64,000 nt of DNA, taken from a virus (lineage: Duplodnaviria; Heunggongvirae; Uroviricota; Caudoviricetes). Where the stretch lies: the IMG/VR virus record IMGVR_UViG_3300023371_000071, one strand, 5' to 3'. Shown piece by piece: positions 4,302 through 64,000 of the stretch. Position 1 is the stretch's first letter. Each line of letters begins with the position of its first letter. A program made the position numbers and the translations under genes. The notes beneath the pieces were generated by a model. The model was not told the DNA's origin and did not search any database. It saw only the letters and a program-made list of their open reading frames with translations.

Positions 4302-4328
4302 ATATACAGAAATGATAGAAAGAGGTTC

Positions 4329-22133: not shown

Positions 22134-22154
22134 ATCTCCGTTTTCTCCTCTCGC

Positions 22155-25287: not shown

Positions 25288-25316
25288 TCGTTCGCCCTCC
25301 TTTATCTCTATAAAAT

Positions 25317-30527: not shown

Positions 30528-30546
30528 TCAAAACTCCTCCATTTAA

Positions 30547-32316: not shown

Positions 32317-32321
32317 TAAGA

Positions 32322-32788: not shown

Positions 32789-32864
32789 TAGTTGTTATCC
32801 TCCTAAAATAATGGGAGAACTTTATTTGAAAGTTCTCCCACATTCTAGATTATATTAAAAATTA

Positions 32865-33086
32865 TCAAGACTTTTTACTAGAATCTGTCCATCCAATTTC
32901 AGTCCACTGATCCAACTCATCCTCTGGAATAGTGACAACTTTTTTTGTAAGTACTCCATTGGTGAGAGTTTTACCTGAATCAGCAATTAATCTCAATAAA
33001 CGGACATGGTAAACGTCTTCAAGGTGAATGGGGGTGTCGAGCACCCCATTCGTACCTAAATAACGATATAAAACTGTTTTTTTCAT
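32865..33086 (-). CDS. Small hypothetical protein
   Basis: 73-aa ORF, tightly packed with its neighbours. Confidence 0.35.
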   Translation of the reverse strand: MKKTVLYRYLGTNGVLDTPIHLEDVYHVRLLRLIADSGKTLTNGVLTKKVVTIPEDELDQWTEIGWTDSSKKS

Positions 33087-33104
33087 ATCCCTATTCTCCT
33101 TTTA

Positions 33105-40418: not shown

Positions 40419-40453
40419 AAAACGATTTTCTCCTTCCTCTCAAAAAATAAAAA

Positions 40454-40479
40454 GGGCAAAGTGCAGTGTCACTTTGCCC
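40454..40479 (-). terminator. Rho-independent terminator
   Basis: GGGCAAAGTG-cagtgt-CACTTTGCCC hairpin, followed on the minus strand by TTTTTATTTTTT. Confidence 0.65.
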
Positions 40480-40499
40480 TGTGTAGTAAAATTTATAAA

Positions 40500-42146: not shown

Positions 42147-42165
42147 AAGTTAGTCCCTCCTATTT

Positions 42166-43521
42166 TTAATTATCAGAAATTGCAGACCAAGTCATAGTCA
42201 TGCTAGAAGAACGAGCATCGACATACTCGGTAACAGTAGTATAAGTAACTCCATCAAAAGTAAGATTTCCAATGCGACTATCCATCGGTTGAGCCCAATT
42301 GCCTTGAGCAGTTAATACATACATATTATCTGTATCGGCAACAACACCAGCTGATGGAACAGGCACTAAACCAGCTAAGCCTTGACTCTTAGTAAAATCA
42401 TAAAGTAAAGCTTTACCGTCAGACTCAGGAACATCTGTACCATTAATACGAACACCATTAATATAATCTAATCCGCCAATTTGATTTTGTAGATTTTCTA
42501 AGGAGCCAAGAATGCCTGAGGCAATAATTGGATTGCCTTCTGCATCAGTACCGGAAGCAGTTCCGATAATTGAGGCTAAACCATCTACATCAGTACGTAA
42601 CGTACCAATATTAGTTTGTGCAATTTTAACAGAACTTTCTAATGTGCCAGTACGAGACTCTAAATTGGCAATAGATGTATTTAATGTCCCAACAGTTGTT
42701 TTTAAACCAGAAACATCTGTCTCAAGTGTTCCTATACGAGTTTCAAAACTAGAAAGATCAACTGGGCTACCCAACTCTTCCCATTTTTGTCCATCGTAGA
42801 TATATTCTGTTGAAGTTTCTTTTACGATATAAATATCGCCAGATTCTGCTGTTTCTGGAAGATCATCTTCTGTTTCAACAGAACCGCGATAATGAGTTGC
42901 TCCAGCGAATTCCGCTTGAGCCTCTTCCTTAGTATAATAATTATTGGTTAGATTGGATTTAACACCTGCGACCTCAGTTTGCAATGCAGTAATTGCGGTT
43001 TGAAGTCCATCTACAGTAGTTGGATTTGGTTCATACCAACCTAAAACGAAAGTTGTACCATCTTCATCAAGAGTAACCTGAGGAATTAATCCTGCTTTCC
43101 AAGGGTACTCATCATTAACTTCTTGAAGCACGTAAGCGGCAGGAACTTCTGCCCCAGACTCATCTTCATGAGCAGCAACATAACGATAATACTTAGATCC
43201 AAAATCTCGTAAAGTCAAAAGACCCTGATCATCAAGAACAATAGTATTTTCGTCTACATTAACTGCGTCTCCACCTGCTCCAGAACCAACTTCAAGTAAA
43301 GTGCCAGCAGTATCGGAAATTACATATACCGTAGAGGTGTTATCTGTTTCATTAACATAAGTAACAATTTGACCAACATAAGCAACTGTGCTTGTGCTTG
43401 CATATGTTACAAGAGCGTCATAATCATACCAAATAGAAGTGGAATCTAATGGAATAGGGTTACCACGCTTGATATTAATCGGAAGAGGCATAAATCCGCC
43501 GTCTTTTTTAATTACAGCCAT
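42166..43521 (-). CDS. Fibre-like protein with heptad-like 'GTLxTxVxGL' repeats (451 aa), TAG-free
   Basis: 'TRIGTLETDVSGLKTTVGTLNTSIANLESRTGTLESSVKIAQTNIGTLRTDVDGL' is a coiled-coil/fibritin-like repeat. Confidence 0.5.
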   Translation of the reverse strand: MAVIKKDGGFMPLPINIKRGNPIPLDSTSIWYDYDALVTYASTSTVAYVGQIVTYVNETDNTSTVYVISDTAGTLLEVGSGAGGDAVNVDENTIVLDDQGLLTLRDFGSKYYRYVAAHEDESGAEVPAAYVLQEVNDEYPWKAGLIPQVTLDEDGTTFVLGWYEPNPTTVDGLQTAITALQTEVAGVKSNLTNNYYTKEEAQAEFAGATHYRGSVETEDDLPETAESGDIYIVKETSTEYIYDGQKWEELGSPVDLSSFETRIGTLETDVSGLKTTVGTLNTSIANLESRTGTLESSVKIAQTNIGTLRTDVDGLASIIGTASGTDAEGNPIIASGILGSLENLQNQIGGLDYINGVRINGTDVPESDGKALLYDFTKSQGLAGLVPVPSAGVVADTDNMYVLTAQGNWAQPMDSRIGNLTFDGVTYTTVTEYVDARSSSMTMTWSAISDN

Positions 43522-43535
43522 TTCTTTTCTCCTCC

Positions 43536-44753
43536 TTATCCTAAAGTAATTACGTAGTTTTCAGTTGGATCGAGAGCTGCTGGCTCATATACCCAAACTT
43601 TATAGTCTACTGCCTGGTAACCGCTCTTGCCTTCAACTTGTACGTAATCCTCTTGAAGTTTGAACTCAGAAGTAATATCTGCGTTCTGACTGACAGGCAT
43701 AGTAACTTTCTTAACACCAATAGAGCTTGTCGCAGGAATTGCAACAACTACCTTCGCGGCATTCGCCACTGAACTTGCCTCATATTGAGGCAATGTTTTT
43801 GCGGAAACTGCTGCATTACTATTTGTTAATTTTCTAATATTGGCAGAATTTAAGGCTGTACCTGCAGTCATTGCACCATAGAAAAATTGACGATAGCCAT
43901 AAAGCTTACCGCTCTTAGCTGTTGCAGTTCCTTCTTTAATGCGATAGCCTGCAACTGCATTACCCAAATTATTAACAGGAATGTCACCTTGAGTATATTC
44001 TGCAGTAGCATTAATGTAATAAGCAGTATCATCAGTTACAGTCAAAGCTGGGAATGTACCAGTAGTTGCTGTCTGAGCAGTATTGCCAATGGTATCAGTG
44101 ACAGAATAAGTTGCAGTGACACCAGTTGGACTAGGACCATATTCATAAGAGCCTGGATTAAAAGTCAAAGTATAGCTTGGGGTCACAGTACTGCCAACTT
44201 CATAGGCTTTGTTTTGTGCTGCGGCGATACTTAAACCTGGCTGAGTAACATCAGGATTTTCTGGTTGAGAGAACAACATTTCAAAAACTTCTTTAACATT
44301 TTTGCCTTGTGTTTGTACAACCTCAGAACCAGAAGCACCAATCTCAACATATCCTACGTCAGTAGTAAATGTTAAATTCTGGTCAAAATAAACGTTTTCA
44401 GCGTTATAATTGCCATCCATGGCTTTCCAGTGAATGCCGTCATAAACATAAGCTGTATGACTATAAGAATCACCAAAAAGTAATTCCTTAATTACACATA
44501 CATCATTTTTAATGAGTGTGGCACCAGCAGTAACTCTTGCAATTGCTTCTTCCTTAGACTCAGTAAACACGCCATTTTCTTGAAGGCGTACGCCTTCATA
44601 AAAATTAGCTTGAGCTAAATTTTTTTCTCCTCGAAGCAATTCTCCGGTATCTGTTAAGAAGTATAATGCATTACTTTGTTTAGAAGCTAAAGCATTATAT
44701 TCTGCTCGCGTACCAAATTTAAAGAGTACGGGACTATTAGTTGCCATAAGCAA
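43536..44753 (-). CDS. Hypothetical virion structural protein (405 aa), TAG-free
   Basis: Continuous ORF in the structural block. No recognizable motif. Confidence 0.45.
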   Translation of the reverse strand: MLMATNSPVLFKFGTRAEYNALASKQSNALYFLTDTGELLRGEKNLAQANFYEGVRLQENGVFTESKEEAIARVTAGATLIKNDVCVIKELLFGDSYSHTAYVYDGIHWKAMDGNYNAENVYFDQNLTFTTDVGYVEIGASGSEVVQTQGKNVKEVFEMLFSQPENPDVTQPGLSIAAAQNKAYEVGSTVTPSYTLTFNPGSYEYGPSPTGVTATYSVTDTIGNTAQTATTGTFPALTVTDDTAYYINATAEYTQGDIPVNNLGNAVAGYRIKEGTATAKSGKLYGYRQFFYGAMTAGTALNSANIRKLTNSNAAVSAKTLPQYEASSVANAAKVVVAIPATSSIGVKKVTMPVSQNADITSEFKLQEDYVQVEGKSGYQAVDYKVWVYEPAALDPTENYVITLG

Positions 44754-44843
44754 TTTACCCCCTTCTTTATTATAAATAAAATGTTGAGCTACGCTCTTTT
44801 TTCTATCAAATTATGACTAATTCAATTATCTAATACAACCCAT

Positions 44844-45233
44844 TTATGCAGCTGTATCATAAGTATAATCAATGAATAGATAAAGAGGATCGTCATTATC
44901 TAAAATGCGGTTTGCATTTAGAAAATTCTAAATTGAGTTAGCATCAAAGCGTAAGCTATAAATAGGTACTTGCATTACATTAGTGGTATCAAAAGACCAC
45001 TTGCCTCGAGTATCTTCTTTATATAGACCATTCACGCGCGTGCTTAATGGAGTAGGAGTGTCATTTAAATAAAATTTAATTCCAAATACTCCTCCAGAGA
45101 TAGTTAAAGCTGAAATACGAATGGAACTATCAAACATAGAACCACTAATTAACATTTCTGCAGTTAAATTGGCAGGATAATTACGACTATCTCCATCTTT
45201 AACATATCGCATTTGTTTTGTTTTTGTTGCCAT
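44844..45233 (-). CDS. Hypothetical protein (about 129 aa), one in-frame TAG
   Basis: ATG with AAGGAGGG ribosome-binding site. TAG at 44928. TAA at 44844. Confidence 0.4.
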
Positions 45234-45244
45234 AATATCCCTCC

Positions 45245-47944
45245 TTAGAAGATTCTATCTTCTGCTTTCGTAGCAGTGATATTCATAGTTCCATCATGAG
45301 AGAAAGAATAACTAAAAGATTTTACAAAATATTCTCCTCGAATTCCAGTTATATCATCTGAAACAGATATGCGCACATTTGGTTCAAAATAATAAACTGG
45401 CAAAGAATTTAAAGTAATAGTTTCTTGATAATAAGTATATTGATATACCATATTATCTAAAACTTCTTTAGCACTTTTTCCCTAGCCACTTAAAGTAAAA
45501 TAATTAAGTAATCCACCCACCAAATTTAATTTTACATAATTCAATGTAGATTCAGTTGGTTGAGTGTCTGTAGGATCAATAAACAATATTTCAGGAGTAT
45601 CTCTAAAAAATATCGCTTTTACATCGTTATCATTAACAACTTTCGGCCGTCTACCGATTTTATCCATACGGTATTTCTCTAATTCGCTACCCTCGCCAAT
45701 AAAATCAATCCAAAACAACAATTTACCTGGATCTTTAAAATATAAAGTATGTGGTAAATTATGTCCTTCACTATCAAGTTCAGCCTAACAGTAAATAATA
45801 TCGGGATGCCAATATTTATTCTCAAACCACTCATTATGTCGTTTAATACGATCTTCTTTTTCTGAATCAGTTAAAGAATTATCTTTTTCAATTTCACTAA
45901 TTGAACGATTATCATATACCAATCGCCAAAAGGCTAACATATCAGCATAACAATAATCATAACCAGTATTCCAAGTATTTTGCCATTTATCAATTAATTC
46001 AATATGAGTACTACTCATAAATAAATCAGCATCGCTACCATCAGCAGCCGGAATTCCAAAAATCATTGAGCCTTTTTCTTGTAAATATTCAATAGACTTT
46101 CCAGTGTTTTTGTCTGTCATTTCTAAAACTGGATGTTTCCAAGATTTTTCATCAGCATCATAATAATAACATTTTGCGGGAACATTTAATTTAGCACCTG
46201 TTTTATATGGATAATATCCTTTATTCATGGCTAACGTTAATTGTTCTATATATGCAGAAGCTCTTGAATTATCATAGGCCATACGGTATAAAATTTCTCG
46301 CCAGTCCACAATCTAAAAATTATTAGTATCCCACTGTAAAGCATCTAAATTCACAGTAACTATAACTGTTTGATTAATATATTCAGGCTTTTCTGGGATA
46401 GTAATACCAAAATAATCAGAATATCGGCTACGACCATCAGCCAAGAAATATTGCCATTTATTAGAATAAGTTCCATCTCCATTGTCGACATATACCCAAT
46501 GAAAAGAATAATAACCATTCAACTCAGTTGTGCCAAGAGTTTCTGTCATTGCAGATAAGAAATTCTCTTCATTAACAATAACATCATGACAATTAAGACC
46601 GTTATTGCGACCTGGCTCAAAATAAATCTTTTTCCCAATTTCGCCAAAACGCCAATTATCTTCTGTATAATAAGTGATACCATTAAATAAACAGAAATAT
46701 TCTTGCGGTTTATTATCAATAGCATAACGTAAATGTATTGGTGCATCAGTTGAAGTTGTGCCCCATACAACAAAATCATTACGAATATTACTTAATAAAG
46801 GCTTATTTGCAAATGAGTTAATCAAAAAACCATTAATAAATTCATATTGAGTCTAAGTACTATTTAAACTATCATAATAAGTACTTTCACCTTCATTTGT
46901 AATTGCACCATGCCAAGCAATATTATGATAAATACGCTTTCTTTGAAAAACAAATCTACCCCAAATATCATAGAAATATTCAAATTCACCAAGCATATTT
47001 ACAATAGCATCAAGAGCTTGTGTGACTGGACTACCAGCATTTACAATTAATTCACCTGGATAAGTAAGTTCTGTTTCACGATATCCTGCAGTATCACCAT
47101 ATTCTACAAATTTAATAATACGATAATAAATTCCATTTAGTTCAAATGGCTCATAAGGAATATAGTAATCAGGATCATCTTCTGTAGCGCCTTCTTTTTT
47201 GGGTGCAGCTTGAATAAAATCATTAGCCAAAGCAGATCCTTCAAATACCATTTGACTAGTATAAAACTTAAAATCAGATGATGTAGAAATATCATAAATA
47301 AATAAGCCTTTATCAGCTACTTTATAATCTAATAATTCTACTGCGCAATCATCTAAATCTGCAATTATAATATTTTCGTAAGATTCAAGAGCATAAGTGT
47401 GTACGGCGTCTCTGACAATTTCTTTGATAGCAATTTCTTTGCGGTAAGTGGTGCCATCACCATTAATAATTTCAATATCACTAAAGCTGTGATCGGCAAA
47501 TAAACTTCCTCCAATTGAACCATCTAACATGCACATTTTATCTTTTCCCTAAATAGAAATTGATAATCCAGATGTATTGGAGGTCTAAGAGAAAGAAGTA
47601 ATAATAAATACTCCCTGTTGAAACCAAATAATTTCATCATGAATTGTATCAATGTAGTTTCGTAATCCAATTAAAACCGCAAATTTAGTATGTAATCCCC
47701 AATAAATTTCATTTAATTCTGAATTGGTATTATCTGTTGTAATATTGAGGCTGCAAGTGCGGCGGGTGGCTGAAGAGCCATCCACAGAAATATTGCCAGA
47801 TACAATATTACCGGTAATTTCTGCGATGGCTCGTTCATCCCAGTCTAATGAAATTAATTTAGCAAATACTTCACGTTGAGTATAATTATCTAACTGCTTT
47901 AAAAAGACATTATCTAAAGAAGCTTGAGAAGTACCAATAAACAT
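45245..47944 (-). CDS. Tail/baseplate protein (about 900 aa), with 6 in-frame TAGs
   Basis: ORFs 47585-47944, 46853-47536, 46313-46825, 45785-46309, 45482-45721 and 45245-45451 share one frame and are linked by TAGs at 47585, 47549, 46853, 46313, 45785 and 45482. GGAGGT ribosome-binding site. The start overlaps the upstream stop as TAATG. Confidence 0.6.
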
Positions 47945-50900
47945 TATCTAACTACCTCCACTTCTTTTTCTTCCTCTTCAAGGACTTGTCGTAAATAATT
48001 ATTCAAACGGTCACGATTAACAAGCCAATTTAACCGCAATGTTTCAACATCATTCTCAGAAATAATTTGTGGATAAGCCTAAACATAAATTCTATATCCA
48101 CCTTGATAATAGTTTTCCACTTGAATTGCATTAATTTCAATCATTTGTCGATTATTAAATATATAGAAGAAATTATAATTCTCAATATCACCCAATGGTT
48201 TATTAATGTTTTCTGGGTCTGCTATTACAGTAAAATTAAAGCGAGCTGCCAAATAATCTTCATAAGCTCGTAACTCAAGCTTTGTTAAATTATCTTTATC
48301 ACCATATTGTTCTTCTAATGTATAAGTTCTAGTTTCAGCTTTGCAATAAACATATACCTAAATACCAGATTGAACTCTTAAATCTAAATCTCCATGAACA
48401 TTCAATGGTAAATTATAGAAATAATGAGCTAAACCATTATCCTCATTATTATCTGTAAATAATGCTTCTGCATCAAAAGCTGTTGAACCAAACAGTACAT
48501 AAGTACCATATTCAATCTCTTCAAAATCCGCGTCTGTAACAGCTGGATATTGTCCTGTTGTAGGATCCACAATACCATGTGCAGGATTTGGAATATATCT
48601 CCAATAAGTATTATCACTTTTACGCAATAAAATACTATTACCATATTGTAATGCTGCAGGCCAATTACCATAATTTAAATCATTATTCCAAACATAAGAT
48701 AATTTCTTTACGCCACATTCGTAAATTGGAATTGAGCGATATTGAATATATACAATACTTGGAATAGTTGCTTTTAAGCCATTCCAGCCTTCAAATAGAT
48801 TTCGACTAAAAACACCAGATTTAGTTTCATAAATTTTTTCTTTTGTAATAGGATCTAAGGCGTATGAACCATCTGCCTCTAACTTATATTCATCAATATC
48901 ATAAGTATATAGTTCTTGTTTTTCAGTTAGACCATATAATCCATATCCTACATAAGTCTGAGCATGAATATCTTGAATGGCTTCAAGATTATCTTCGTCT
49001 ATATTTTCAACTGTTAAAATTAAATATCCTTTTACCAAACTTAAAATATCTGGAGGATTAATATATCGTAATGGCGCGGTTGAATAAGTATCTAGTTCTA
49101 ATTCATAAGTGCCAGTTTTATTAATGGCAAAATTATATTCTCCCCACTCAAAGCTCATACCATATGTGCTTGCTTTATTTATTGTATTTGTAGGATCTAA
49201 ATCATAAATAAATTCAATCTTGCGACATCCAGCACCTTCTGTTAAATCATATTCAGAAAATTCTTTTGAATTTTTCATTACTCTTGCAAGATCGCTTAAA
49301 GAAATTGTTTTTTTCATATCAATATGAACGATTTCGTCTTGAGCATTTAATAAAGAATAATTCGCAAGTGTACTAATATTAAATTTATCTACCTCTGATG
49401 CAGTACAAGAAAAGCTATGTAACATTCTACTTATGGTATCATTAGGAGTCAGACTAACGTTGGTTAATCGAACAATATAACTACCTTCTTGTGGAGATTT
49501 AAATAATTTAATCTTACCATTATTTAGCCATTCTAAAACGGCTAACTTAAATTTCCGCTCATAAGTGAAATTTTCGTCTGTAAGGGCAGTACCAGGTTCA
49601 ATGAATGCACTGCGGATAAGAGTCTTATCTTCTTTAGTTCCAAACCATTCAAGGTCATCGCCAGTAAGAATCCAACTTTTATCAAGATCAGTTTTTTTCA
49701 TAAATAATTGATCATTATCCATATGATATGAAATTAAACCATTAATTGGAAACTCTTTATAATTTAAAATACCATTTCGTAAAATAAAAGGATATTGTCT
49801 ACCAAGCGTAGTTTTTTTAGTTTCAGATAAAACTGACTTAAAAGAAGAAATTTTTGGATTAAAACGAATACGCAATTGTTTGTCACCATCATACAGAAAA
49901 GCATCTTCAAATACTGGAATTGTTAAATTAGCAGTAGATACTCTCTTAGAATAAATATTGCGTGAATTTACTTTTTGCAAAGAATACATATACTTTGCAC
50001 CAGATTCAATAGCATAATCAATATACTGATAACTACGAGTTTTTGATAATGCCATATTAATAGGAAGTTCTGCAATCGTTTCCCAAAGTCGATTTTCGCT
50101 CTAAAAGTCTTGTCTACAAATAACAAAATTACCAATTAGAGGATATTCTTCTATTTTATTTTCTATTAAATATTTTGATTCAGGATAAATATGTAGAATT
50201 ACACGAGCATTTTCATTATCTACCTCTGTAGCTAAATATACATTTAATGTACTAATAGTGACTGTGGTTTGGGTAATTTCATAATTAACAGTATTTACTA
50301 CTAATCCATTATTAGTAATAATGCTGTACTATACTCGATAAATTTCGCCTTCTGTTAAATTAAATGTTAAAATACATTCATCTGAAGAAGCATCTAAATC
50401 GGTATCAGTTTGAGTATTATGAATTAACCATCCAGTATTTTGTAATTCTGCACCTTCACTATTAGAAAAAATAAAACGATATTGATATACTTTTTCTGAT
50501 TCATCCTCATTCTGATAAGTGCCAATAAAAGATGTGTGTGAAATTGCAGTAATTGATTGCATATTTAAACCAGCAATTTCTACGATTGGCTTTGATGTAT
50601 ATTTTACAATAGCAACAGTAGAATAATATCCATCATTACCTGCTTGATCAACATATGCTAATTGAACTTTATAAAAATTACCTACAACAAGTTTTGCCAC
50701 AATGTCCTCTGTCAAGTCATAAATTACAGAACGATTTTGGGCGTCATCTCCATATTTTTGAGAGAAAAGATTTGCAATAACAATATCTGTAGATGTTGTT
50801 TTTAAGCGAAGTCGCATTCCCTTAACTGCGGCGTTACTTACTGTAACATTCATAGAAAAAGGGACCTCTAATGAGGTCCCCGTGTTCGTAGTATAAAATG

Positions 50901-50952
50901 AGGGAATGGTGCCCGCTATATTTGGTGGATATAAGCGGTTAATTGCGGCCAT
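47944..50952 (-). CDS. Tail/baseplate protein (about 1000 aa), with 5 in-frame TAGs
   Basis: ORFs 50329-50952 and 48358-50055 share a frame via TAGs at 50329 and 50101. The frame continues through TAGs at 48358, 48079 and 47947 to a TAA at 47944-46. GAGGAGGAG ribosome-binding site. Confidence 0.55.
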
Positions 50953-50954
50953 TC

Positions 50955-51341
50955 TTACTCCTCCTCAATAAGCATTTCCAAAGCAAGTAATTGTTTGGGG
51001 GTAAATTCCATATTTTCAATAAGTGCAAGAGGAATCTTACGAAGCTCAAGATCTGCAGTAAAATCATTTAGATCTTGACGAGCTTTACGACATTCTTCTT
51101 CCTTGCCTTCTTGAATAGCAAAAACGCCAGGAGCATTCTGAACAAATTCTTGCTTTTCAGCATCAAACTTCAAATATTCAAGAGCAAACTTGCGCTCTTG
51201 GTCAATATAAAACTCTTCTTCTTTCTTAAGCGCAGTAAGATTCTTTGCAATAATCATACCAAGCTTAAAAGGAACTTTAGAATCTTGAAGTTCTTCAAGA
51301 CCTCGCATAAGAGTATCAATTTGAGTATAATTAAGTGTCAT
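50955..51341 (-). CDS. Hypothetical protein (128 aa)
   Basis: AAAGGAGAAAAAGG ribosome-binding site. TAA stop. Confidence 0.45.
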   Translation of the reverse strand: MTLNYTQIDTLMRGLEELQDSKVPFKLGMIIAKNLTALKKEEEFYIDQERKFALEYLKFDAEKQEFVQNAPGVFAIQEGKEEECRKARQDLNDFTADLELRKIPLALIENMEFTPKQLLALEMLIEEE

Positions 51342-51366
51342 AATCCTTTTTCTCCTTTATATATGA

Positions 51367-54300
51367 TTAATAGTAAGATTCCCATCCTGAAGAGGGAGTT
51401 GATTCCTAAGCAGGAAAGAATGTACTAGCAGTATAACTTGATGGCGAATATGAATGAGAGGCTGGGGTATATGAATGTGATGAAGCTGTATAATTACAAG
51501 TTCCATCTGCATTTTTGCTATGTGAAGAAGCTTTATAATAATGGCTTGCTGCCGTATAACTATGTGACTCTTGAGTATATGAAGAAGCAGTATATTGAGT
51601 GTCTGCTTCACATTGAGCAAAACCCGCACTATAACCAGCTTTATATGCCGCCGCGATTTGGTCCATATGATATTTCGTGGCGGCAATATTAAAAGAATCG
51701 GATACTGTTGCCCCCGCGATAGTTAAAGAATAAACAATAGATCCGCCCTCTGCACTCATTGTAAAACCGCCCTCACCAAAAATTTCAGGCTCATCTGTTA
51801 AGTCAACCTATTTTCCTGCGATTGTCAAAGAGCCAGTTAATTTTCCACTGCTTGTACCCATAGTCCAAGCCCCATCTTCAAAAATGGGTTGTCCAGCATC
51901 TTCTCCCATAGAAGTATCAGCACCAACTGTACCAATCTATACGGAAGCTTTTAATTTACCTTCTGAAATTTCATAATTTAATACGTGTCCATGCTCCGCT
52001 AAAGCAAGAGCGGTACCTTCACCGACAGTTGCGCCAGGAGTATTACCATTGCCGTTAAAACTCTCCTGCAACATTTTTCCATAAATACTCTATAATTCAA
52101 TGGAAATAATCGCAGAGCCATCTCCTCCAGCAGGGTCAACACGTAAATTTGCTTGACCAACAGCCTTAGCTAAAGCATTTTTAGCTTTCTTTAAAGCTTC
52201 AATTGCTTTATTCATTGCCGCAGCAGCTAAGTTGTTAGCAGCAACAATTTTTGGATAAACTTCTTCACAAAGAATTCTATTTACCCAAGCTTGAGTTGCA
52301 ACCAATGAAGGAGTAGGTGTTCTTGATTCATTATTATCATCAAGCATAAAAATTACTCCTCCATAAATGGAGCCATCAACATCAAGATTTTTAGTAAATC
52401 TAGCAGATTCACCATAAATATTCCACTAATAAAGATAACCTAAATCGGCTCCACGAGGAACAATTGTAACATTGCTGCCAATAGATTCTCCGCCAGAACC
52501 AAGATAGACATTAAATCCCATACCTTTAGCATCATGATACACAGCAAATAAACCCGCTCCACCAAGCTGTAAAGTTTCATCTGATTGCGCATCTGTTAAT
52601 TCTACTGAAGTGTGGAATGTACCAGTAAAATTAGTTAACCAAACCAAACCATCACTGTCTGGAGGAGTTACAATATCTGAGTCATCTTGAGAAAAATCTG
52701 GGAAACCACTTAAATCAAAAGGAATAATTGTTCCTTCTGCGGCATAATTATCATCTTTACTACCTTTTGTAAATTCAGTGGTTCGTTTATATTCTTCACC
52801 CATTTCATATGCACGTGGCATAATGAAATTAGTATTTGTATCTTCTTTATAAGTCAAACCTTGTAAATGAATTGCTGCAAGATATAAATTACCTTCAACC
52901 AACTCTTCTGTTACTGCAATATCTTCCGAAAGATCAGTAAAAACACCCTGACTTTCAGTCGAAATACCACAATAAATAGAAGCAGTTTCTCCATCAATTT
53001 GAACTTGACCTTTAGAGAAATAAGCACTACCATTATTGCCACTGATAAAGCTTTTTGGAATTGGGAATGGATCTTCTCCTGTTGCTTTTTCTAAACCAAA
53101 ACCAATATCACCTGTAGTAAAATTGATTAACATATTATAATATGTTGGTTCAGCAATTAACTCAATACCTTCATCTTCAGTAGATAAACCCATCCAACCA
53201 TATCGGCCACTAATAATCATTTTACCTTTCATAAAGGCAATAAATGAATCATGACCATTTAAGTTAATCCAGTCACCATTATGCTCGCCATCTCCTTGAT
53301 CTCTAAAACCAGAAGGCATTCCATTTTCATCAGTAAAATCATCATAAAATTTACGATAACCTTGAGCTTGGCCTCCACCAAAATTTCTATCGGTTGCATA
53401 AATTTCATAATCATTAATATACCAATTACCAATGGTTGCATATTTGGTGTATAGATAACCATCAGATCTAATACCTGTCTAAATAACATTATCTTCATTT
53501 GCAAAAGATGCAGTAAAGAAATTCTCTGGAACAGGTAAAACTTCAGTGGTTCCATCTTTATATTCTTTGGTATAAGAAGTAACTTCTTCTCCATTTAAAG
53601 TATATGTAGGATTTGGAATAAAAGAACCATTTGACAAGTTCTTTTCTGGATTTCCTAAAAATATTCTACCAAAAATATTCTTCTATGTCAAGCCATAGTC
53701 ACTAATAACCCATGGATAATCTTTACCGATACGACCATATCTAGCAAAAATACCACCAGTTGTAACTACGCCATAATTTGGGTCTACTAAGAAATAATCA
53801 TGATCTTCATCATTCATAAATTCATCTACCCATAGTAGTTCTTCATGATGACTCCAATCTTGCATCCAACTTAATGTTTTATCCGCCAATTCATCGCAAA
53901 ATGTTGAAATACGTCTTGGTGTCTATGTATATAAGAAAAATTGTGAAATACTTTGATTACCAATAGCATCCCATGCTTGATTACTAATTACATAACCACC
54001 ATTTTCATCTTCTGTCAGATAATCCAATAAACGACGAGGATTTAAATTAATATAACAAGTCTAAGTTGAATTACTAATTAAAGCGTTTCGTCCATCAAAA
54101 TGGATACGTCCTTCACCAGATGGACCAATAAAACCAGTGCCATCAGTTTTAAATCCAAAAGACTGTTGTCCTGCATTGAATCCGTATAGGCCAGGAGTAT
54201 CTAATGATTCATCGCCTTTTTCATGCCAGTCACCCATCATAACACCGGTAAAACGATTGCGCTGATCTTTTGTGCCTGCTGCAATCATTTTTGCAATAAT

Positions 54301-57300
54301 CGCACTGTTCTCATAATCAAGAGATAGACTCTAACCATCCCACTCATTAACAAGAGAAGAAGGATAAAGGTTCTGCGCAAATGCGATACCCTGCGCGACT
54401 GTTGTGGTACCATCCATAAAATATATATAAGTAAAATACTCATCTGTTAATAAATCTTCTGTCCATTGTTGTGCATAAGCCGAAGGATCTGCTACATGAG
54501 TATTTAATTGTTGCGCGGAAAAACCTAACGCATAAGAAGTTTGATTTGCTTTACTTACAGAAGTTCCATTTGGTAAAGTAAATACTGGATATTCAGCCTC
54601 TTTTTCAATTAAGCGTAATACTTTTGTTTGATTGATCTACCATGTTGGATAAATCAATTCATTCATATAATCATATGTTTCGCCGGTTTCTTCAGAAGTA
54701 TCAGATCCAGTAATAATTTTTTGTACTTCAAATACATTTGATGCATAAATTGGTGCTTGACCGTCAGATCTAAATTCTACACGATCTGGACACACAATAT
54801 CATGCGTTTGCATATATTGAGCACTGTTACTTACTAAAATACCTTTTCGGACTGTAATATCATATTCTGCCGCACCAGATACCGTAACCTCAACAACAAA
54901 AGGATAAGGTTGTGTAATGCGGCCACGGATAACATTGCCAATAAAATCTTTATAATTTAGATGGTCTCTATCATCTTTTGGTTTATATGCAGTACCATAA
55001 TATTTCCAAGTGAATTCGCACTTTGCTCTTTCATCCAATGGTAATAATTGACCTTTACGATCATATACTAAACAGTAGATTTCAAATTCACTTGCGGTAT
55101 CAACATAATAATTGCCAGCAGGTTCACTAATGGTAATAACAGGAGTATATTCACAACCAAAAGCTCCTGCTCGTCCAAAAATTAGTTCTTTCTTAATAGA
55201 AAAAGAACCCATACCATCAATATCAATTGTAGCACTAATTTCATTGTCATTATATCGCACATTATGAATAGCATCAATATAAAAATAGCGAGTTGCTTTT
55301 TTATCTAATTCAAATAAATGATCTGAACGATGATTCCAATATGCAATATCTCGTGCGTTATCATCAAGCATTCCCCATGCTCTAATCATAGTAAAACTTT
55401 CTGGGAATTGCCAAGTAATATTAAAATTCGGTTTATTACCATCTCGATCAGTGTACTCGCTTAAACGAACATAAGCGGCATCTTTGTCTGCATATACGTA
55501 ATCTGAAGCAAGATTTCTACGATCCTCTTCAACTTTGATCCAAGGTTCAATATAGTATTGCACATCTGAGAATAAAATATTATCATCATTAGCTAATACA
55601 TTATTATTTTCATTATATACAAAGAAATTACCAACAGTGTCATCGGGAACAAGAGTTTCAGATTCTCTTGGCGCTAATCTATGAGTATCAGTTAAAAGTT
55701 CCATTTTACCTGTTGTAGTTGTAAAGAAATAACCTTTACCAGTAGGTAATTTTTCTGAACAGGAACCAACCAAGTTTCCACGAGAATCATATACGTCATA
55801 GCCAGATGGTTTCAATAACGCACAACGTAATACAACTTTATCATTGCGCGCCAAATTGGCAATATCGCTCTCAATCGTTGTGTTATAATTCTAAAAAATA
55901 AATACATTACTTGTAGTATATGTATTATTAAAATGAATTACAACCTTGTAGCGCTCTTTTGCTTTATTTATATCGGGAGTAACAACAAAATTAATTGGAG
56001 TATTTTCATCATATTCTACATCAGCATCTGTTCCAATAGGGCGCCAATAATTACCACCGAAACGATGAGATGGAATTTCTGAATTATACTCGGGATGCTC
56101 TGGCGCCCATTCAGGATCATATCTATACCAATATGTTTTTGCTTCTAATTCTTCTAATCTTGAATATGTATCAATTAGTTCAAGAGTGTTATCTACTTTA
56201 TGAACCCATGCGGCATAAAGAGTACGATCAGGTTTACGCACTGCCTCATTCTCAGGGTCTGCGCCATATGTAACTACATCATATGTATATAATGTAATTG
56301 TTTCCTCTTGCATTTCCTCAACAGAAAGTCCAAGCAAACAATGTAAATTATTAAAAATAATATTTTTTAACTCTGCACTTCGACCAGTGGCTTCTCCAAA
56401 CTAAACATAGATTTCGTTAATACGAATCTTTTTTTCTTCTTCTGAAAGACTTGTATCATCTTCTACGGCTTTAATCTAAGCCATAAAATCTTCTTTAATA
56501 GTTTCTATGTCTTGAGATCCCCAAGGGATTGGATTACCATATTCATCAATAAATTTATGATCTTGCCAAAACCATACGTCAATACTATCAATAGAATTGG
56601 TAAATTTAGAGATGTCCACAACGATTTGTTGTGTTGAGGCTAAAGTATAAGCATATGGATTACCGTACATATTATTGTTAGTAAAGTAATATTCTTGTGT
56701 TAAAGTTTCAATAGCACCAGAAGTTTTATCTTCAGTGCCTTGACCTCTTACACAAATACGTAATCCATATTCACCAGATTGAGGTCTAAAAGTATGTAGA
56801 AGTGTAGTAACATCAACTTCTAAACCCAATTTTGTGGCACAAATAGGACGTTTTTCAATGTTTTCCCAATGCCATACATGATCTTCGGATATTGGGAATG
56901 TTTCATTCGCAACATCCATAATAAGCGTTTGTTCTTCTCCATGATAAGGACAATTAGCCCAATAACCAACTTCCTACATTGGCGTATTATATGATAAATT
57001 ATATAATCCCACAAAATCATCAAAAGGAAGTTTGAGATTATATATGCTCTATTCATCTTCAGTATTAATTTTTAAACCAATAATAAATTTTTGAAGATTA
57101 AAATCACCATTTGGGATTTGTACATAAACTTGCTGACCTGCACTATATACTTCTCCCTATTTAGCATAAGCATCAAAAACTGCGTCTTGGCTTTTTACTT
57201 TATAGACACCAGTGCGAGCACCTTTATCATCAAGATAAACCTCAATGATTTTACACTCTTTGGTAATATCAAAATTTTGCTTTGATACGACTCCAGTTAC

Positions 57301-57360
57301 AATTGTATAAATCGCATCAAATAAATCGTTTTGCAAATTACCATTTTTCTATTCTGCCAT
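51367..57360 (-). CDS. Giant tail-tip/baseplate-associated protein (about 1997 aa), read through 18 in-frame TAG codons
   Basis: Nine ORF-track fragments share one frame: 56476-56919, 55891-56337, 54637-55854, 54061-54288, 53683-53889, 52426-53319, 52090-52347, 51406-51759 and the start segment. TAGs at 57349, 57157, 57049, 56974, 56476, 56401, 55891, 54637, 54331, 54061, 53923, 53683, 53479, 52426, 52090, 51937, 51808 and 51406. ATG at 57358-60 preceded by AAGGAG. TAA at 51367. The C-terminus is Tyr/Ser/His-rich ('YTASSHSYTPASHSYSPSSYTAS'). Confidence 0.6.
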
Positions 57361-57450
57361 CCATGTTTCATCTCCTTTTACTCAAAACACTTCTATCTTT
57401 TTATAGAAAAATCGTGTGATATATTAGCCGAAATAGACCAACCAAAAAGA

Positions 57451-57472
57451 AGGGGTCTCCGAAGAGACCCCT
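57451..57472 (-). terminator. Rho-independent terminator after the tape-measure gene
   Basis: AGGGGTCTC-cgaa-GAGACCCCT hairpin followed by CTTTTTTGG on the minus strand. Confidence 0.6.
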
Positions 57473-57480
57473 TATATTTA

Positions 57481-60400
57481 TTAGCGTTTTGAACCAATGT
57501 ACTGAGCCGCGCGATTAATAAGATTATCAAAAGCATCTTGGATTTCATTACTATCTTGTACGTTCGGGAATTCTGCGGTAATATGAACTTGTTGTTGCAA
57601 TTCAGTTTCCTTGGTGGTTTGGGTAGTTTCTGCATGTAAATTATACATATTAGCTCTTGAAGCTGCGGTTGCCAAATTAATATATTCATCCATCATAGTT
57701 AATGTGGCTTGATCAAGTTTATTTACTACTTTAACTGTATCAAGCAATTTTTGTGTATCATTTTGATTTAATACTAATTCCGGTCTACTCTTAGTGCCAT
57801 CAACCCAAGCGGGGCCAGTATAATCAGCGAGGCCACCAGTGGCATATTTCTTGCCAGTTTTATCTTTAATTAGATCACCAAGCTTATTGCCAACAATAGC
57901 TCCTGCTACGCTAGTGACACCAGATCCAATGATCGCACCAACTGTGCCACCAACTTTAGAACCTACGCCTCCACCAACAACTCCACCAACAACTGCGCCT
58001 AGAACGGCACCAATATTTAATCCAGAAGATTTATCTTGTGTACCGGTTCCACCAGTGCCGCCAGTTTTACCACCTGTATCTCCAGTTTTATCATTGTTTT
58101 TAGTGGTGGTGGTATCTTTTTTGGTCGTAGTTGTAGTAGTTTTAGTGGTAGTTGTTGTAGTACTGCCAACACTCGCGCCGGCCAATTTTGCCTAGGCCTA
58201 AATAACTTTCTAAATTTCTAAATACATTGATTCATAAGTACCAATAACACTATTTAATTTAGAAATATAATTATCCCAAGCTGTTGTAGTAGTATGAATT
58301 TGACTTACCTCTTGACGCAGTGAATCTGTCATTTTTACAGTTTCATTTTTTGCATCTTCTGTTACTTTATCATAAGTATTTACAGATTCGACCATACTAC
58401 CATAACTAGTATTTGTTAATATAGTTACTTCTGCAATTTTAGTTGCATAATCTGACATGGCCTGTTTAATACGATCATAAGCGGTTTCCATTTCATCTCG
58501 ATAATTATCAGTATCATTAATCATTTCACCAATAATTTCAGCAACAGTACCTTTTGTTCTATCTGTAATTTCTTCAACTGCAATACCATAATGATCAGCA
58601 ATTAATTCATTGGTTGTCATTGTATTTTCACTAACAATATTATATTGCTCTTGTAAATAACGAGAGCGTTCATAATAATGATCTAAAATCTCATTGATTC
58701 TTTGTTGTTTTTGTTCTTCTGTTAAAGTTTCATCCATAGCAATTTCTTTAATAGCTTCAAGCGTGTCTTGGCGTAATTGTAAAGTTTGATTATAAATATC
58801 TTGTTCGTATTCCCAATTGGTATCAGCCATTTGCTGAAGTACATCTTCATATTCTTGCTGGGCTTGATTAATAGCATCTTCATCAGCGGTATATTGATAT
58901 ACCATGTTGCCTTCGCTATCACGAGTTAAGCGTACAGTACTCTTAGCGTTTTGAGCCTCTTCAAGAGCAATCTACTTAAGAAGAAGTTCATATTTAAGAT
59001 TCATCATTTCAATTTCATATTCGCTTAATTCTTTTAATTCACTTTGAGCATTAATTTCATCTTGTAATGCTTTTAATTGCTTTTTATGTACACTAGAAGT
59101 TGTGTCGTTGATTGACTGTTGGATATTACGATTTAACTTACTAATTTCATATAGTTCACGCTGAGAAGAAACATATTGCTCCATTTCTTCCATGTAGAAA
59201 CCATATTCCTCAGTGAGCCAAGCAAGATCATTACCCACACCAACCATTGATTCTTCAAGATCTTTCATAATATCTTCGATTGTAGTATCGTACATATCTT
59301 TTAAGGCTTGAAGAGTTTCTTCAGTCTTAGATAGAATATTTGCTTGTACTTCATTCATTGTCTCTTGCAATGCCTCATATTGAATTCGTTCTGTTTCAGT
59401 TAATCCTTCCGCAGAGTTCATGCGCGCAAGATAATATTGCTCTTCTTCTTTAAGTACATTAAGATAGGACATTTGAGATTCAAGAGAAGCCATATTATAA
59501 TCATATTGCTTTTCATAGAAGAATAACAAATCTTCAAATGTTTGTCCTTTACCCATAAGCTGAAGAATAGACATATAAGAGCCCATAGCTTCAGAAGCAG
59601 CATCAATTTTTGCAGTATGCTTGTCAAGTTCTTCACTAGCAAGTTCAAGAGTCTTACCATAAAGTTCTTCAATTGCTTTTTTAGCTTCTTGAATTGCCTC
59701 AAGATTATCAAGAATTTGAGATTGAATATCCTGTAGACCTGCAACGTAATCAGCTTGATTAAGATCTCCCGCCGCGAATGCAGCTTCAAGTTCTTGACGA
59801 GCTGTGGCAAGATAACTTAAATTCTATTCTGCGATTTGTCCTTGACGAATATAATTATCCATAAGAAGATCTTGTTTTTCAAGAACTTCATCATATTTAT
59901 CATTAATATAATCAAGATAATCTTTTTCAGCTTCATTAATTTCAACTTTGTATTCGACTTTATATTGAATCTTTTCAAGAGTCTTTTCAGAAATTTGATT
60001 CTGCAATTCAAGAATTTCATTTTGTTTGTCACCAATAAGGTTTAAAGTTTCTTGATATTGATCAATCCATTCCAAGGCTTCTTCAAACCATTCGTCCATT
60101 TGCTCTTTTTCTTCTTCCATATTTTCTTGAGCAGAAGCATCAGCAGCGTTGTATTTATCAATAAATGCATTGTATTTAGCTAAAATAGAATCCATTAAAG
60201 CATCATAATTAGAAATATTCCCTTCGCCATCAAAAGTAGCACCAAGAGAAGCAACTCTCTATTTATCAACTGCTAACCACTCTTGAGCCTATCTGACATA
60301 TTCTTCCTATAAGCCAATTTCTTGTTCAATTAAAGAAATTTCTGCTTCTAAATTTTTTAAATAAGATTCTCCATAAACACGCTTTTTAACTTTATCTACT

Positions 60401-63400
60401 TTTTCTAATGCATCCGCCATACGCTCTAATGCATTATCTACTTGGAAATAGCGCTGTTTATGATCTTCTGGCTTCTTTTTATCAAGCTTCTTTGGCTTTC
60501 CGCCACCTCCGCCACCTCCACCTCCGCCGCCACCACCGGTGATACCTCCACCATAGGTGCCTTTGTTAGTGATAGTTTTAATAGCAAAACCTTTAACCAT
60601 ACCATCAACAGGATTGGCATGAACACTTAAAGGAATATAAAAGTCTTGACCATTTTCACCATGGGCGATATAACTACCTGCTTTTGCAGACCACTCTGTT
60701 TGTTCCACTGGAAATTCTTTAGTTTCAACCTGCATATCCATTCCCAATGCCGCAGCCAAAGCTTGCATAATACTTGCTGCTTCATTCGCATTAGAGGCTA
60801 AACCAGAGACAAAACCAGCCAATGAAGTTAAGTTATTCGCAACCACTTGACCCATTTCGCCTTCTCCTAACAATTCACTCCAATTAAGAGCTTTACCTTC
60901 TGGTAAACCATTAACTGCTGTTGATAAGGCTTCAAGCTCATCCGTCATAGATGAAATATCAGCATTACCTGTTAATTGATCTAAAATATGCTTAGAAGCT
61001 TTTTCTTGCAATCTATCGTAAGCTCCATCGACACCATCGGCAGCATCCTACAAATCTTTTAATACGTCATCTTGTAACATAAAGTCTTCTGTTAATGCTT
61101 CAATTCCCTTATCATCCAAATCGAGAACATCACCATACATTTCTTTCATGTCATCAAGAGCTTTTTTATGTTCAACAGTGCCCTTCTATGCCTCTTTTAA
61201 TGTTTTAGAATATGTTTTTAAATTGGACTAAACAGATTTTAAACCCTTTTGAACTCTTGCATATGAAGCTGCCAATTTGATATTATCTTCTTCTGTTTCT
61301 CCATTAATTTCGCCTAATTCTTTTAGATATTCTGTATATTCTTTTAATTCTTCAACACTACCAAAACCAGCTTTAGTTGCCAAATCATCAAGGGAAGCTT
61401 CAAAATTATCCTCTCCAGTACCAGTTGTAGCATCATCTTTAGCTTCTTGTGTCTCTTCTTTTACCCCTCCAATAATTTGATCAAATGCTGAAAGTACATC
61501 TAACCATTTCTATGGATCCCATCCAAGAGCAGTTAAGTCTGCCATCGCCGATGCTTTATCTTGATCAGTAGTTGCAGAAGATAATCTTAATAACGCCTTT
61601 TGCTCTGCTTCAGAAAATTCTATACCATAAGGAGAAAATTTTTCTGTGTTACCTGCAATAAGGCCCGCAATCGCAGCTTCTTGATCGGTATATTTATCAT
61701 CTGTAAAATCACGAGTTTCTCCTTCTTTATTTGTCGTAGCAACTTCAATTGATTTTAAAATTGTATCAAAACCTGCCATAGCAACAGATTCCAAGTTCGC
61801 TGCCCAAGTTTCAGGATTAACGCTATCACTTAATTCATATTCTCCCCAACGATTGGCTTCAAATTCACCTCTAGCTCTAATCTCAGCCCTTTTATAAGCT
61901 TCTGCATCAGAAATCTCTTCTCCGTTTGCTTTAGCTTTAGTTTTTTCCTATTCTGCATATGCAGCAATAACTTCTGCATATTCTTCTGCTGTTAATGCTT
62001 CACCTTCTCGGACTTTATCAGCAATATCTGTACGAGTTTTATAAATATTTGCTGCACCTGCCAAAGACATAAGTGCTTCCGCTGCGGCTTGAGCCGCAGT
62101 TGCAACTGCATTAATCGCAGTTTGCAGAGGTCCCTCTAAAGTAAATCCTGCAGCCTTTAATCGATCTTCAAAAGCTTGTACAGAAGCAGGATCTCCCCAA
62201 TCAACACCAGAAAGAGCATTGGAAAATTCATCTAATCTTTCTACCGGAACTGCTTTTAACATTGCTTTCATTCGATCAATACCAATTTGTCCAGCAGAAG
62301 CTTCGGCATTGGCCAAAATATTTGCCGCAGTCTCTTGATCTTCGGCAGTATCAAAAATGTAGTTATCACTAATCATTTCTTCATAAGCAGATTTAACTCT
62401 CTGAGAAAACTTACCATTAGCAATATCAAAAGTCTTAGCTCCATTATTTACCGCGGTAATAATGGCTGCATAAAATCCATCTACATCTTTAGCAATTGCT
62501 GCACCCTATTGCGTTAAACTAAGATTACCTTCTTCATCTTCGGTTAAATATCCTGCTTGAATACCCCAATTTTTCATTAAAGTGGTATCAGTTGGTAAAG
62601 CATATTTTCCGTCTTTTAAAGAAAGTCCCAGTCCCATCGCCAAAGTGTTTTTGTTTTCTGCCCATGCATTACGACCAACATCAAAATATCCTTCTGCTAA
62701 ATTTGCCTAGGATAAAATATAAGCCGTTGCAGGATCTATACCTAATACTTTAGCAATTTGCTCCGGGTCTTGCTTAAAAGCTGCATCAATATAAATACCC
62801 TCTTGAGACCAATTTCTATTTGTATACCCTTCAACATCTTTGTATAATGCCGTTTCTACAGCAGCTAAAGCCTCAGAACCACCAGTTCCATCACTATCAA
62901 ATAATGCAGAAACCAATTTCCAATTATCTGCATTCTATAGCCAATCTGTAGTTACTTCTGTCCCAAAAATTAAAGTTAAAATATCAGCTAAAGCTTTAAA
63001 TTTTTCCAAATTTGCTTCAGTAATAGTGGAATCTGCCATATCTTGATTTAATGCAGTAAAATCTGACAACATACCAATTAAAGAATTAAATCCTTTGGCT
63101 CGATTTGATTTAATTACTGCATCTTCATAAGCTTGCTATGTTGTAATTGCTGCATTAGAATTATATAATTTTAATTCTTCTAAGTCATAACCATTCGCAC
63201 TAGCGATATTAGATAAAATTGAATCTCTTGCCCAAGCTGGGATGGTAGAAAAATCTGCTTTACCATCTTTCGTAAAACCTGCATTAATTAAATCTGTAAA
63301 TGAAGTAACTGTTGCGTACCAACTATTTAAATCTTCTGATGTAACCTATAAGGTATCTCGACTAGCCCATAAAGTTCCAATTCGACTATTAACATCCTAT

Positions 63401-64000
63401 TTTTCTGTATCAGTAGATGATTCTAACCACTTATCCAAAGCAGTTTTGCCTGCTGTATCTTTGGTAATATCATCTAACCCTAAAAGCAGAGATAATAATT
63501 TGCGATCTTCTGACGTTAAATTATCAAAATCAATTAAAGCATCTTCTGTATTTGCGAATTTATTTAAAATTTCATATAATGTATTTGAAAATAAAATTGA
63601 TTTAGACAATGCATTGTCTTGTGAATTTGCGATATATTGCCATTCTTCACCAATTTTTGCAAATTGATCTTGAGTTAAAATACCATACTATTCTAATAAA
63701 TCTAACTCTTCTTGTGAGATCAATCCACCCTCTTGAATTGTTGCTAAAATTTCAGACAATGCAGGAATAGCATTTTTAAAATTTAATAAATTATCGGTTG
63801 AACGAGATGATTGTGTCTAATGATAATTGTTTAATCCATCAACTTGTGATAAATCTAAAGTTCCACCTTTTGTAAAAAGGCTTAAAATTTTATTTATATC
63901 CCCATTAGCCCAATCTTTAATTAATTGCTATTCGTAACCACTAAGTTCTGATAACATTTTTTGCTATCTTCTAGTTAACTAATTGCCAAATTCGCCCCAT
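57481..64000 (-). CDS. Tape-measure protein, 5'-partial (over 2170 aa in the window), many in-frame TAGs
   Basis: All-helical coiled-coil ORF fragments at 57481-58185, 58210-58905, 58972-59586, 59824-60195, 60307-61011, 61510-61794, 61948-62376, 62707-62916 and onward share one frame. They are joined by TAGs at 58192, 58198, 58210, 58972, 59824, 60307, 61510, 61948, 62707 and others. C-terminal glycine-zipper 'GAVLGAVVGGVVGGGVGSKVGGTVGAIIGSGV'. Internal poly-Gly 'GGGGGGGGGGGGG' (about 60499-60540). TAA stop. Confidence 0.65.

Follow-up and report, generated by a model that had tools for sequence, protein, structure and literature searches.

Probable TAG-to-glutamine recoding of tail, lysis and other late genes in an uncultured, distantly SPbeta-like gut phage

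How should viral DNA be read when one of its strands offers nine consecutive open reading frames (ORFs), all in the same frame and each ending at TAG? The question arises on the minus strand at positions 51367-57360 of a 64,000-nucleotide stretch of the IMG/VR virus record IMGVR_UViG_3300023371_000071 (Caudoviricetes); the whole of this stretch is called the window here. An earlier note, made from the letters alone, took the nine fragments as a single protein gene interrupted by 18 in-frame TAGs, with one ribosome-binding site and ATG upstream and one terminal TAA, and proposed recoding of the kind found in genetic code 15. The analysis described below supports that interpretation. The reading at which it arrives, with a probability of about 0.92, is that the phage has two coding regimes: its replication and nucleotide-metabolism genes are compatible with the standard code, and its tail and lysis genes, together with several other late genes, would use TAG as a codon for Gln (genetic code 15).

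The giant gene lies directly downstream of the tape measure gene. Frame 0 of 51367-57360 on the minus strand contains 1998 codons; 18 of these are TAG, none is TGA, and the only TAA is the final codon (51367-51369); the other two frames of the same span contain 83 and 266 stops. At the out-of-frame rate of 54 TAA plus TGA per 1997 codons, the chance of an open run this long is ~e^-54. The ATG at 57360 is preceded by AAAGGAG, which agrees with the proposed ribosome-binding site. Cut at its 18 TAGs, the frame falls into 19 pieces, of which 11 reach 60 codons or more, and nine ORF fragments are consistent with this division. The frame count thus bears out one protein of 1997 amino acids (aa). Its homologue in relatives is a single ORF, 1917 codons long, in which 12-13 TAGs occur, mostly at other places: ten of the 18 TAG sites in the window fall within aligned blocks, and just two of these ten are TAG in the relative. 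The borders of the fragments are therefore not conserved, which on this comparison rules out that the fragments are separate genes. The 1997-aa protein falls in no family of Pfam or PHROGs, and solely from its place after the tape measure we infer a distal-tail component.

The effect of reading TAG as sense extends over the window. It fuses fragments into ORFs of 2173, 2005, 1446, 1007 and 911 codons, which no other table does. Reassignment of TGA or TAA was considered and rejected, as reading TGA as sense alters almost nothing in ORF lengths. When genes are defined with the TAG-sense table, 13 of the 34 genes in the window contain in-frame TAGs, 73 in total, and the gene ends are TAA (29/34) or TGA (5/34), with none needing TAG. 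From one stop to the next, the reading frames of the ten early genes are entirely free of TAG, and TAG is therefore no terminator there either. Conserved domains run across the TAGs. The Pfam RuvC match (residues 5-147) crosses all four TAGs of a 162-aa RuvC-like resolvase (13455-13943, plus strand), and the Pfam SpoIID match (residues 22-102) crosses two of the three TAGs of a 656-aa endolysin with SpoIID, SH3_3 and two PG_binding_1 domains (16329-18299, minus strand). Full-length homologues cover 96-100% of the RuvC and SpoIID queries.

It had been claimed beforehand that motifs of RuvC and of the endolysin continue across their TAGs and that genes end in TAA or TGA, never in TAG, and both claims hold. 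Fusion into full-length proteins on re-calling with a TAG-sense table had been proposed as a check; such a re-call yields a full-length RuvC, a SpoIID endolysin, a tape measure of ~3,730 aa and a giant protein of ~1,917-1,997 aa. The TAG counts given for other genes were right for the tail fibre (4), an 899-aa gene (6), the endolysin (3) and RuvC (4), as was the joining of the tape measure fragments; a 1002-aa gene has four TAGs and not the five that had been counted. Taken as far as sequence comparison reaches, these frames, domains and homologues show that TAG is a sense codon in this phage.

Under the standard code (table 11) the region would consist of many short ORFs, several of them with possible starts, and these could be small separate genes, decaying pseudogenes in a defective element, or products of faulty assembly. 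The probability of this is practically negligible. Separate genes or pseudogenes would have to account for 1997 codons without TAA or TGA, for interrupting stops that are exclusively TAG in 13 genes, and for domains and homologues that span the TAGs while the fragment borders are unconserved. In a defective element the essential tape measure, endolysin and tail genes would all be affected, yet the phage is widespread. An artefact is at odds with the presence of identical sequence in >20 independent assemblies. The window is no artefact, because it is 99.99-100% identical to independent public contigs. One of them, k141_1461088 of ENA ERZ27248314, is 167,964 bp in length, and the window takes up about 7.4-71.4 kb of it. 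Public gene calls with code 15 allowed, made on a contig of 99.99% identity, give the same products, including those of 1997 aa and 129 aa.

Which amino acid is inserted at TAG? Gln was the expectation, although the earlier note held that the amino acid could not be read from the sequence. The genes of close database homologues themselves contain TAG and were called with TAG=Q, and Q residues in them were discounted as evidence; codon-level comparison and controls annotated under code 11 were used as the replacement. Q is present in 108/120 homologues at RuvC column 67 (motif ENIQLQ) and in 120/120 at SpoIID column 74 (motif DQAFRA). At the latter column Q is also found in 7/7 NCBI/JGI homologues annotated under code 11, bacterial proteins among them. 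The RuvC gene of a relative with 96% identity has CAA or CAG at two of the four window TAGs and TAG at the other two, and in RuvC relatives with 70% identity TAG stands opposite Gln codons of the window and Gln opposite its TAGs. Over all loci, the commonest codons opposite window TAGs are CAA (33), TAG (29) and CAG (13). A Codetta-style likelihood test was carried out on 128 TAG-versus-sense pairs from four non-redundant relatives, with substitution profiles from the same alignments. Gln is best, by 61 nats over Glu, 67 over Lys and 85 over Ser. Alignments and likelihood test thus agree on the expected residue, and show TAG to correspond to Gln in these comparisons; the caveat that the amino acid is unreadable is largely lifted by this comparative evidence.

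A tRNA with a CUA anticodon was sought by walking along IMG/VR relatives from DnaB, a GyrA-like gene, YonD and a HAD-like gene. One relative, IMGVR_UViG_3300021255_000108 (165.7 kb), has a DnaB 76% identical to that of the window phage; in an array ~36-40 kb upstream of this gene lie 13-14 tRNAs, among them tRNA-Gln(UUG) and tRNA(CUA). The tRNA(CUA) (7085-7179 of the fetched piece, L125; 55 bits with the Rfam tRNA model) has a U1-A72 pair, G73, an encoded CCA and a D-arm like that of the adjoining tRNA-Gln(UUG), and its variable arm of ~25 nucleotides (nt) is as in type II tRNAs (Ser, Leu, Tyr). It is homologous to the 88-nt tRNA-Sup-CTA (62445-62532) of the gut phage phAss-1 and to a 91-nt CUA tRNA (2618-2708) of the contig JAZQXF010000002.1. 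The acceptor stems of the three homologues are wholly different yet paired, and all retain the weak 1-72 pair and G73, which are identity features of tRNA-Gln in E. coli. The three belong to a family of long amber suppressors (88-95 nt) whose acceptor end and D-arm are Gln-like, whose anticodon arm (CCGGTCTCTAAAACCG) is invariant, and into which an extra arm is inserted. This family is common to phages whose polymerases are just 38% identical.

Discussion of the suppressor's extra arm was looked for in the searchable literature, and none was found; the long-arm, Gln-like amber suppressor is, with a TAG-free adhesin block described below, a mildly novel side observation. It is conceivable, though we consider it unlikely, that the SPbeta-like lineage and the phAss-1 group share an unusual, conserved and nearly invariant suppressor with a Gln-type body whose inserted arm alters charging or handling, so that the switch would differ from the simple model of a mutated anticodon. 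If this were true, the extra arm could provide escape from host control, recognition by another synthetase, or ambiguous decoding.

The structure of this tRNA bears on the possibility that TAG is sense and specifies another amino acid, or is ambiguous: Ser, Tyr or Leu by way of a long-arm suppressor, or else pyrrolysine or Lys. The sole suppressor found in a relative combines a type-II-like arm with G73, and a long extra arm and G73 are used by bacterial SerRS. After Gln, Lys and Glu stand opposite TAG most often, and ARAGORN labels the relative's tRNA(CUA) 'Pyl', merely because of its CUA anticodon. phAss-1, for its part, has three different Sup-CTA tRNAs (Babkin et al. 2023, PMC10607447). 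We nevertheless regard another amino acid as highly improbable, given the distances at which Glu, Lys and Ser trail Gln in the likelihood test, the Gln-dominated SpoIID and RuvC columns, the exchange of TAG with CAA/CAG between 96%-identical genes, and an acceptor end and D-arm that resemble those of tRNA-Gln(UUG) and are kept in three homologues with covarying acceptor stems. Pyrrolysine was tried separately and rejected. In pylT the variable loop is short and the D-loop small, unlike the relatives' tRNA(CUA), where the D-loop is normal and the extra arm long; no pyl genes are among the annotated genes of the window, and Lys is 67 nats worse than Gln.

Several observations weigh against TAG=Gln recoding. 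ARAGORN and Rfam scans detect no tRNA in the window, and Pfam and PHROG searches find no release-factor or aminoacyl-tRNA synthetase gene among its genes. The roughly 130 kb of relatives' sequence walked contain tRNA(CUA) in one close relative only, and the 8.6 kb upstream of the window contain none. The scan for a CUA tRNA and a release factor that the earlier note had called for gave a tRNA(CUA) in a relative and neither kind of gene in the window itself. Gln charging of the long-arm tRNA(CUA) is not self-evident, because its variable arm is of type II length. Gln is opposite 27% of TAGs as against 45% of CAA/CAG codons, which makes the inference per site weaker; the lower conservation of TAG sites is what would be expected if TAG arose mainly at less constrained Gln positions. 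Finally, the last TAG of the giant gene is 12 codons ahead of the TAA, and in a few genes the last TAG is similarly close to the C-terminus, where it is indistinguishable from a real stop. As to release factors, phage RF2 and synthetase genes are optional, being present in a minority of code-15 genomes and not required for membership of the code-15 family (10.1101/2021.08.26.457843).

That the window encodes no suppressor tRNA or release factor would also suit leaky stops, that is, low-efficiency read-through by the host machinery or a host suppressor, with mostly truncated products and little full-length protein. The same may be said of the detection of TAG suppressors in just 40% of TAG-recoded genomes (Borges et al., 10.1101/2021.08.26.457843). 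We hold leaky stops to be exceedingly improbable: with 18 and at least 22 TAGs per gene essentially no essential tail proteins would be made, a relative encodes tRNA(CUA), and the complete avoidance of TAG both as a terminator and in early genes points to systematic reassignment.

The most likely model, drawn by analogy with relatives and with published code-15 phages (10.1101/2021.08.26.457843; PMC10607447), would have the following steps. Within a tRNA array elsewhere in the genome, the phage would encode a tRNA(CUA) descended from tRNA-Gln that acts as amber suppressor. The suppressor would be charged with Gln by host enzymes, and when abundant would permit full translation of the TAG-containing late genes, with termination at TAG by release factor 1 (RF1) outcompeted or disabled late in infection. 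The full-length yield is the read-through efficiency to the power of the TAG count. Since the giant gene has 18 TAGs and a tape measure may have >40 (relatives have 41-66 in theirs, and phAss-1 has 110), read-through would need to be nearly complete, so that RF1 would have to be outcompeted or inactivated. The suppressor in this genome, its charging, the fate of RF1 and a function in timing are all parts of the model that we infer.

The relative's tRNA array has other features. Its tRNAs with Leu anticodons UAA, CAA and UAG (L125 4869-4944, 6583-6658 and 6665-6740) are just 76 nt long; they are without the long variable arm that bacterial tRNA-Leu typically has, and that the CUA suppressor of the same array does have. 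An ORF inside the array (L125 4100-4591), labelled by eye, resembles PTH2 peptidyl-tRNA hydrolase, and a 487-aa ORF ~12 kb away (L122 7699-9159), also labelled by eye, resembles RNA ligase; the two are a hint of further control of translation by the phage. A metagenome search with the PTH2-like ORF gave further tRNA arrays and no additional CUA tRNA apart from that of the same phage. The contig JAZQXF010000002.1 (6,550 bp) consists of nearly nothing except its 17 tRNA genes, the long-arm CUA suppressor included; it is binned in a metagenome-assembled genome of 'Candidatus Nanosyncoccus' and is most likely a misbinned phage fragment. ARAGORN also reports a tRNA with a UUA anticodon ('tRNA-Stop', an ochre suppressor; L097 16738-16821) on a 23-kb IMG/VR contig that has only a HAD-like protein (50% identity) in common with the phage's relatives. 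This call may be false, or may be a sign of TAA read-through in another phage.

Is the whole genome recoded alike? Only some genes are recoded. As a set, the recoded genes contain 72 TAG and 356 Gln codons (CAA plus CAG), TAG thus taking ~17% of Gln positions, and the ten early genes have 0 TAG and 147 Gln codons (Fisher p=1.5e-10 versus recoded genes). A pattern of standard early and recoded late genes holds, with two exceptions: the recoded RuvC gene and a TAG-free tail/adhesin block. The block (29934-44810, minus strand) is a nearly TAG-free, adhesin-like cluster of seven genes over 14.9 kb, with 1 TAG and 152 Gln codons (Fisher p=2.4e-9 versus recoded genes). One of its products, of 2437 aa, has BspA-type leucine-rich repeats together with an Ig-like domain and a tail-tip domain. 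Compared with recoded late genes, its GC content at third codon positions is 0.25 versus 0.20 and the share of CAA in CAA plus CAG is 67% versus 85% (p=5e-6), and in codon usage it stands between the early and the recoded late genes. The difference points either to recent arrival from a genome that uses the standard code or to membership in another expression class; the block is possibly a host-recognition module of recent import. If it was imported, TAG density would serve as a clock for residence in a recoded genome. The sole TAG of the block is in a 173-aa protein (32322-32843) to which no function is assigned.

On the plus strand, the switch falls where two genes overlap: RuvC, with its four TAGs, starts at 13455, ahead of the end of the TAG-free dUTPase gene at 13462. 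The coding regime is therefore not set simply by strand or operon. The change at 13455-13462 takes place inside what appears to be a single operon, and in 70%-identical relatives the open frame of dUTPase has one TAG. Patchiness gene by gene (TAG-free early genes, recoded RuvC, TAG-free adhesin block) offers a test of a translational timer versus gene history.

How does this phage compare with those already known to be recoded? The source of the window is an uncultured gut siphovirus of ~168 kb, distantly SPbeta-like, and the window is a part of its genome. Its DNA polymerase III (pol III) alpha shares 38-39% of residues with the polymerases of Bacillus phage SPbeta, of Enterococcus phages EF1 and VRE9, and of phAss-1 from the gut. 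Relatives' contigs are of gut metagenome origin and 150-190 kb in size, and they contain Pfam families of the SPbeta type (YorF, YorH, YonD_N, YonB, YomV, the YomU tube, YomW and YomO) in conserved gene order. The endolysin, with its SpoIID, SH3 and PG_binding domains, makes a host of the Clostridia type probable. Other searches returned nothing: megablast of 45000-64000 matched none of 50,697 phage records, a 417-aa stretch of the giant protein without TAG retrieved no relative from IMG/VR, a JGI metagenome search with a 185-aa piece of the tape measure found no match, and the DNA polymerase, in a test for a prophage or host, had no match among GTDB representative genomes by the search used.

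Recoding of late genes from TAG to Gln is established in the crAss-like, Lak and 'gemstone' clades of gut phages (10.1101/2021.08.26.457843; Yutin et al., PMC7886860), and in crAss-like phages TAG=Gln is backed by metaproteomics (Peters et al., PMC9523058). Like the window phage, code-15 gut phages have TAG in structural and lysis genes, aligned with Gln, and replication genes compatible with the standard code; they use TAG little or not at all as a terminator, have low GC, and carry their coding in blocks. Some of their genomes have a suppressor tRNA(CUA). The window phage differs from the crAss-like, Lak and gemstone phages in its apparently separate, SPbeta-like lineage, its pol III alpha, its tape measure of ~3,730 aa and its probable Clostridia-type host. 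It also departs from the bias to lysis genes reported for crAss-like phages, since its holin has no TAG and the bias is strongest in RuvC and in a 125-aa protein.

The nearest described parallel may be drawn with phAss-1 (GenBank OQ749652), which NCBI files under 'Caudoviricetes code 15 clade'. It is a human gut phage of siphovirus type with pol III alpha, NrdD/NrdG, a 3,149-aa tape measure, a large tRNA set, no dedicated aminoacyl-tRNA synthetase, and TAG=Gln in virion and some DNA-processing genes (PMC10607447). Pol III alpha, NrdD/NrdG, a very long tape measure and TAG=Gln are shared with the window phage. The two differ in genome size (136 kb versus ~168 kb), their polymerases are 38% identical and their tail proteins 21-33%, and megablast finds no similarity between them; members of the Phassvirus group, on the other hand, have 80-86% mutual nucleotide identity. 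Because of the lack of a nucleotide match and the low polymerase and tail identities, the window phage is placed by sequence outside the proposed Phassvirus genus, and it would appear to work in the same way.

The SPbeta-like phages (Spbetavirus; SPBc2, NC_001884; EF1, VRE9) resemble the window phage in their YorL-type pol III alpha and in a giant tape measure followed by large distal tail proteins. They use the standard code, unlike the window phage, and no recoding was found in EF1 (PMC10607447). Dual coding in blocks is known well enough to have dedicated software, Mgcod (10.1101/2022.06.29.495998). The dual-coded genomes found with Mgcod have, like the window, stretches readable with code 11 and stretches needing code 15. 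In the window phage the blocks do not run simply with strand or operon, as a 14.9-kb TAG-free block lies within the late tail cluster and the plus-strand switch falls at the dUTPase/RuvC overlap. The phenomenon is thus known, and the window phage adds another case: an SPbeta-like siphovirus lineage of ~165 kb, probably infecting Clostridia, joins the phages with TAG-to-Gln recoding. Knowledge of the genetic code itself is unchanged. For annotation the consequence is practical, as under the standard code the tail, tape measure, endolysin and RuvC genes break up into dozens of small, spurious ORFs, and annotation of this abundant gut phage requires table 15 or, preferably, a scheme with two codes.

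The remaining recoded genes are mostly on the minus strand, which carries the holin, the endolysin, two radical-SAM proteins, the tail fibre, the adhesin-like block, tail or baseplate-like proteins and the tape measure. The tape measure (57481-63999) is cut by the window edge, leaving the C-terminal ~2,160 aa with 22 TAGs counted from the first ATG (24 over the whole open frame); full-length homologues have 3,725-3,736 aa and match Pfam PF10145 (PhageMin_Tail). Beyond the giant gene are a 1002-aa baseplate or distal-tail-like protein (47944-50952, four TAGs, phrog_30026), with a homologue of 944-975 aa at the same position in relatives, and the 899-aa tail protein (45245-47944, six TAGs), with a weak DUF5048 match and phrog_1887 'tail protein'. 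The 'baseplate-like' labels have as their basis gene order and one weak 'tail protein' match. A 129-aa protein follows (44844-45233, one TAG, function unassigned). The 1444-aa tail-fibre-like protein (25568-29902, four TAGs) starts with TTG behind GGGGAGGG; it is 31-32% identical to relatives' ORFs and belongs to no Pfam or PHROGs family. Next to the holin, the 125-aa protein mentioned above (14961-15338, function unassigned) has five TAGs, the top TAG share of Gln positions in the window (5/12, 0.42), and the holin itself has none. On the plus strand, another 173-aa protein (14009-14530, one TAG, function unassigned) has homologues in relatives.

The early module (2-13462, plus strand) comprises RecJ-like, Dda-like helicase, DAHP-synthase-like, GmrSD_N-like, DNA pol III alpha, guanylate kinase, NrdD, NrdG, one unknown protein and dUTPase. 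The DAHP-synthase-like and GmrSD_N-like genes (2428-4283) are situated between the helicase and the polymerase, and GmrSD_N is a domain of a nuclease that depends on DNA modification. NrdD (9004-11268) is 46% identical to that of the distant phAss-1 and just 29% to those of otherwise much closer relatives, which suggests that the ribonucleotide reductase gene has been exchanged. In one relative, IMGVR_UViG_3300029305_003293, a stretch of ~10 kb upstream of the terminase region (10400-20400 of the fetched piece, about 136-146 kb) differs from the remaining genome in that open frames of several phases overlap and clear genes are few, and Rfam finds nothing in it.

Two low-complexity proteins of 497 and 538 aa, rich in Tyr, His, Ser and Asn, are encoded at 22155-25287 on the minus strand, with three and one TAGs. 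They contain repeats such as HYSGHY, YTTHY and NSGxxT, and two radical-SAM genes (19354-20772 and 20721-22154) adjoin them in the region 19354-25317. The radical-SAM enzymes and the Tyr/His/Ser/Asn-rich proteins are a possible enzyme-substrate pair, which would act in post-translational modification of tail proteins. At the C-terminus of the 1997-aa giant protein, SHSYTxASH is a motif of the same kind as the repeats of these two proteins.

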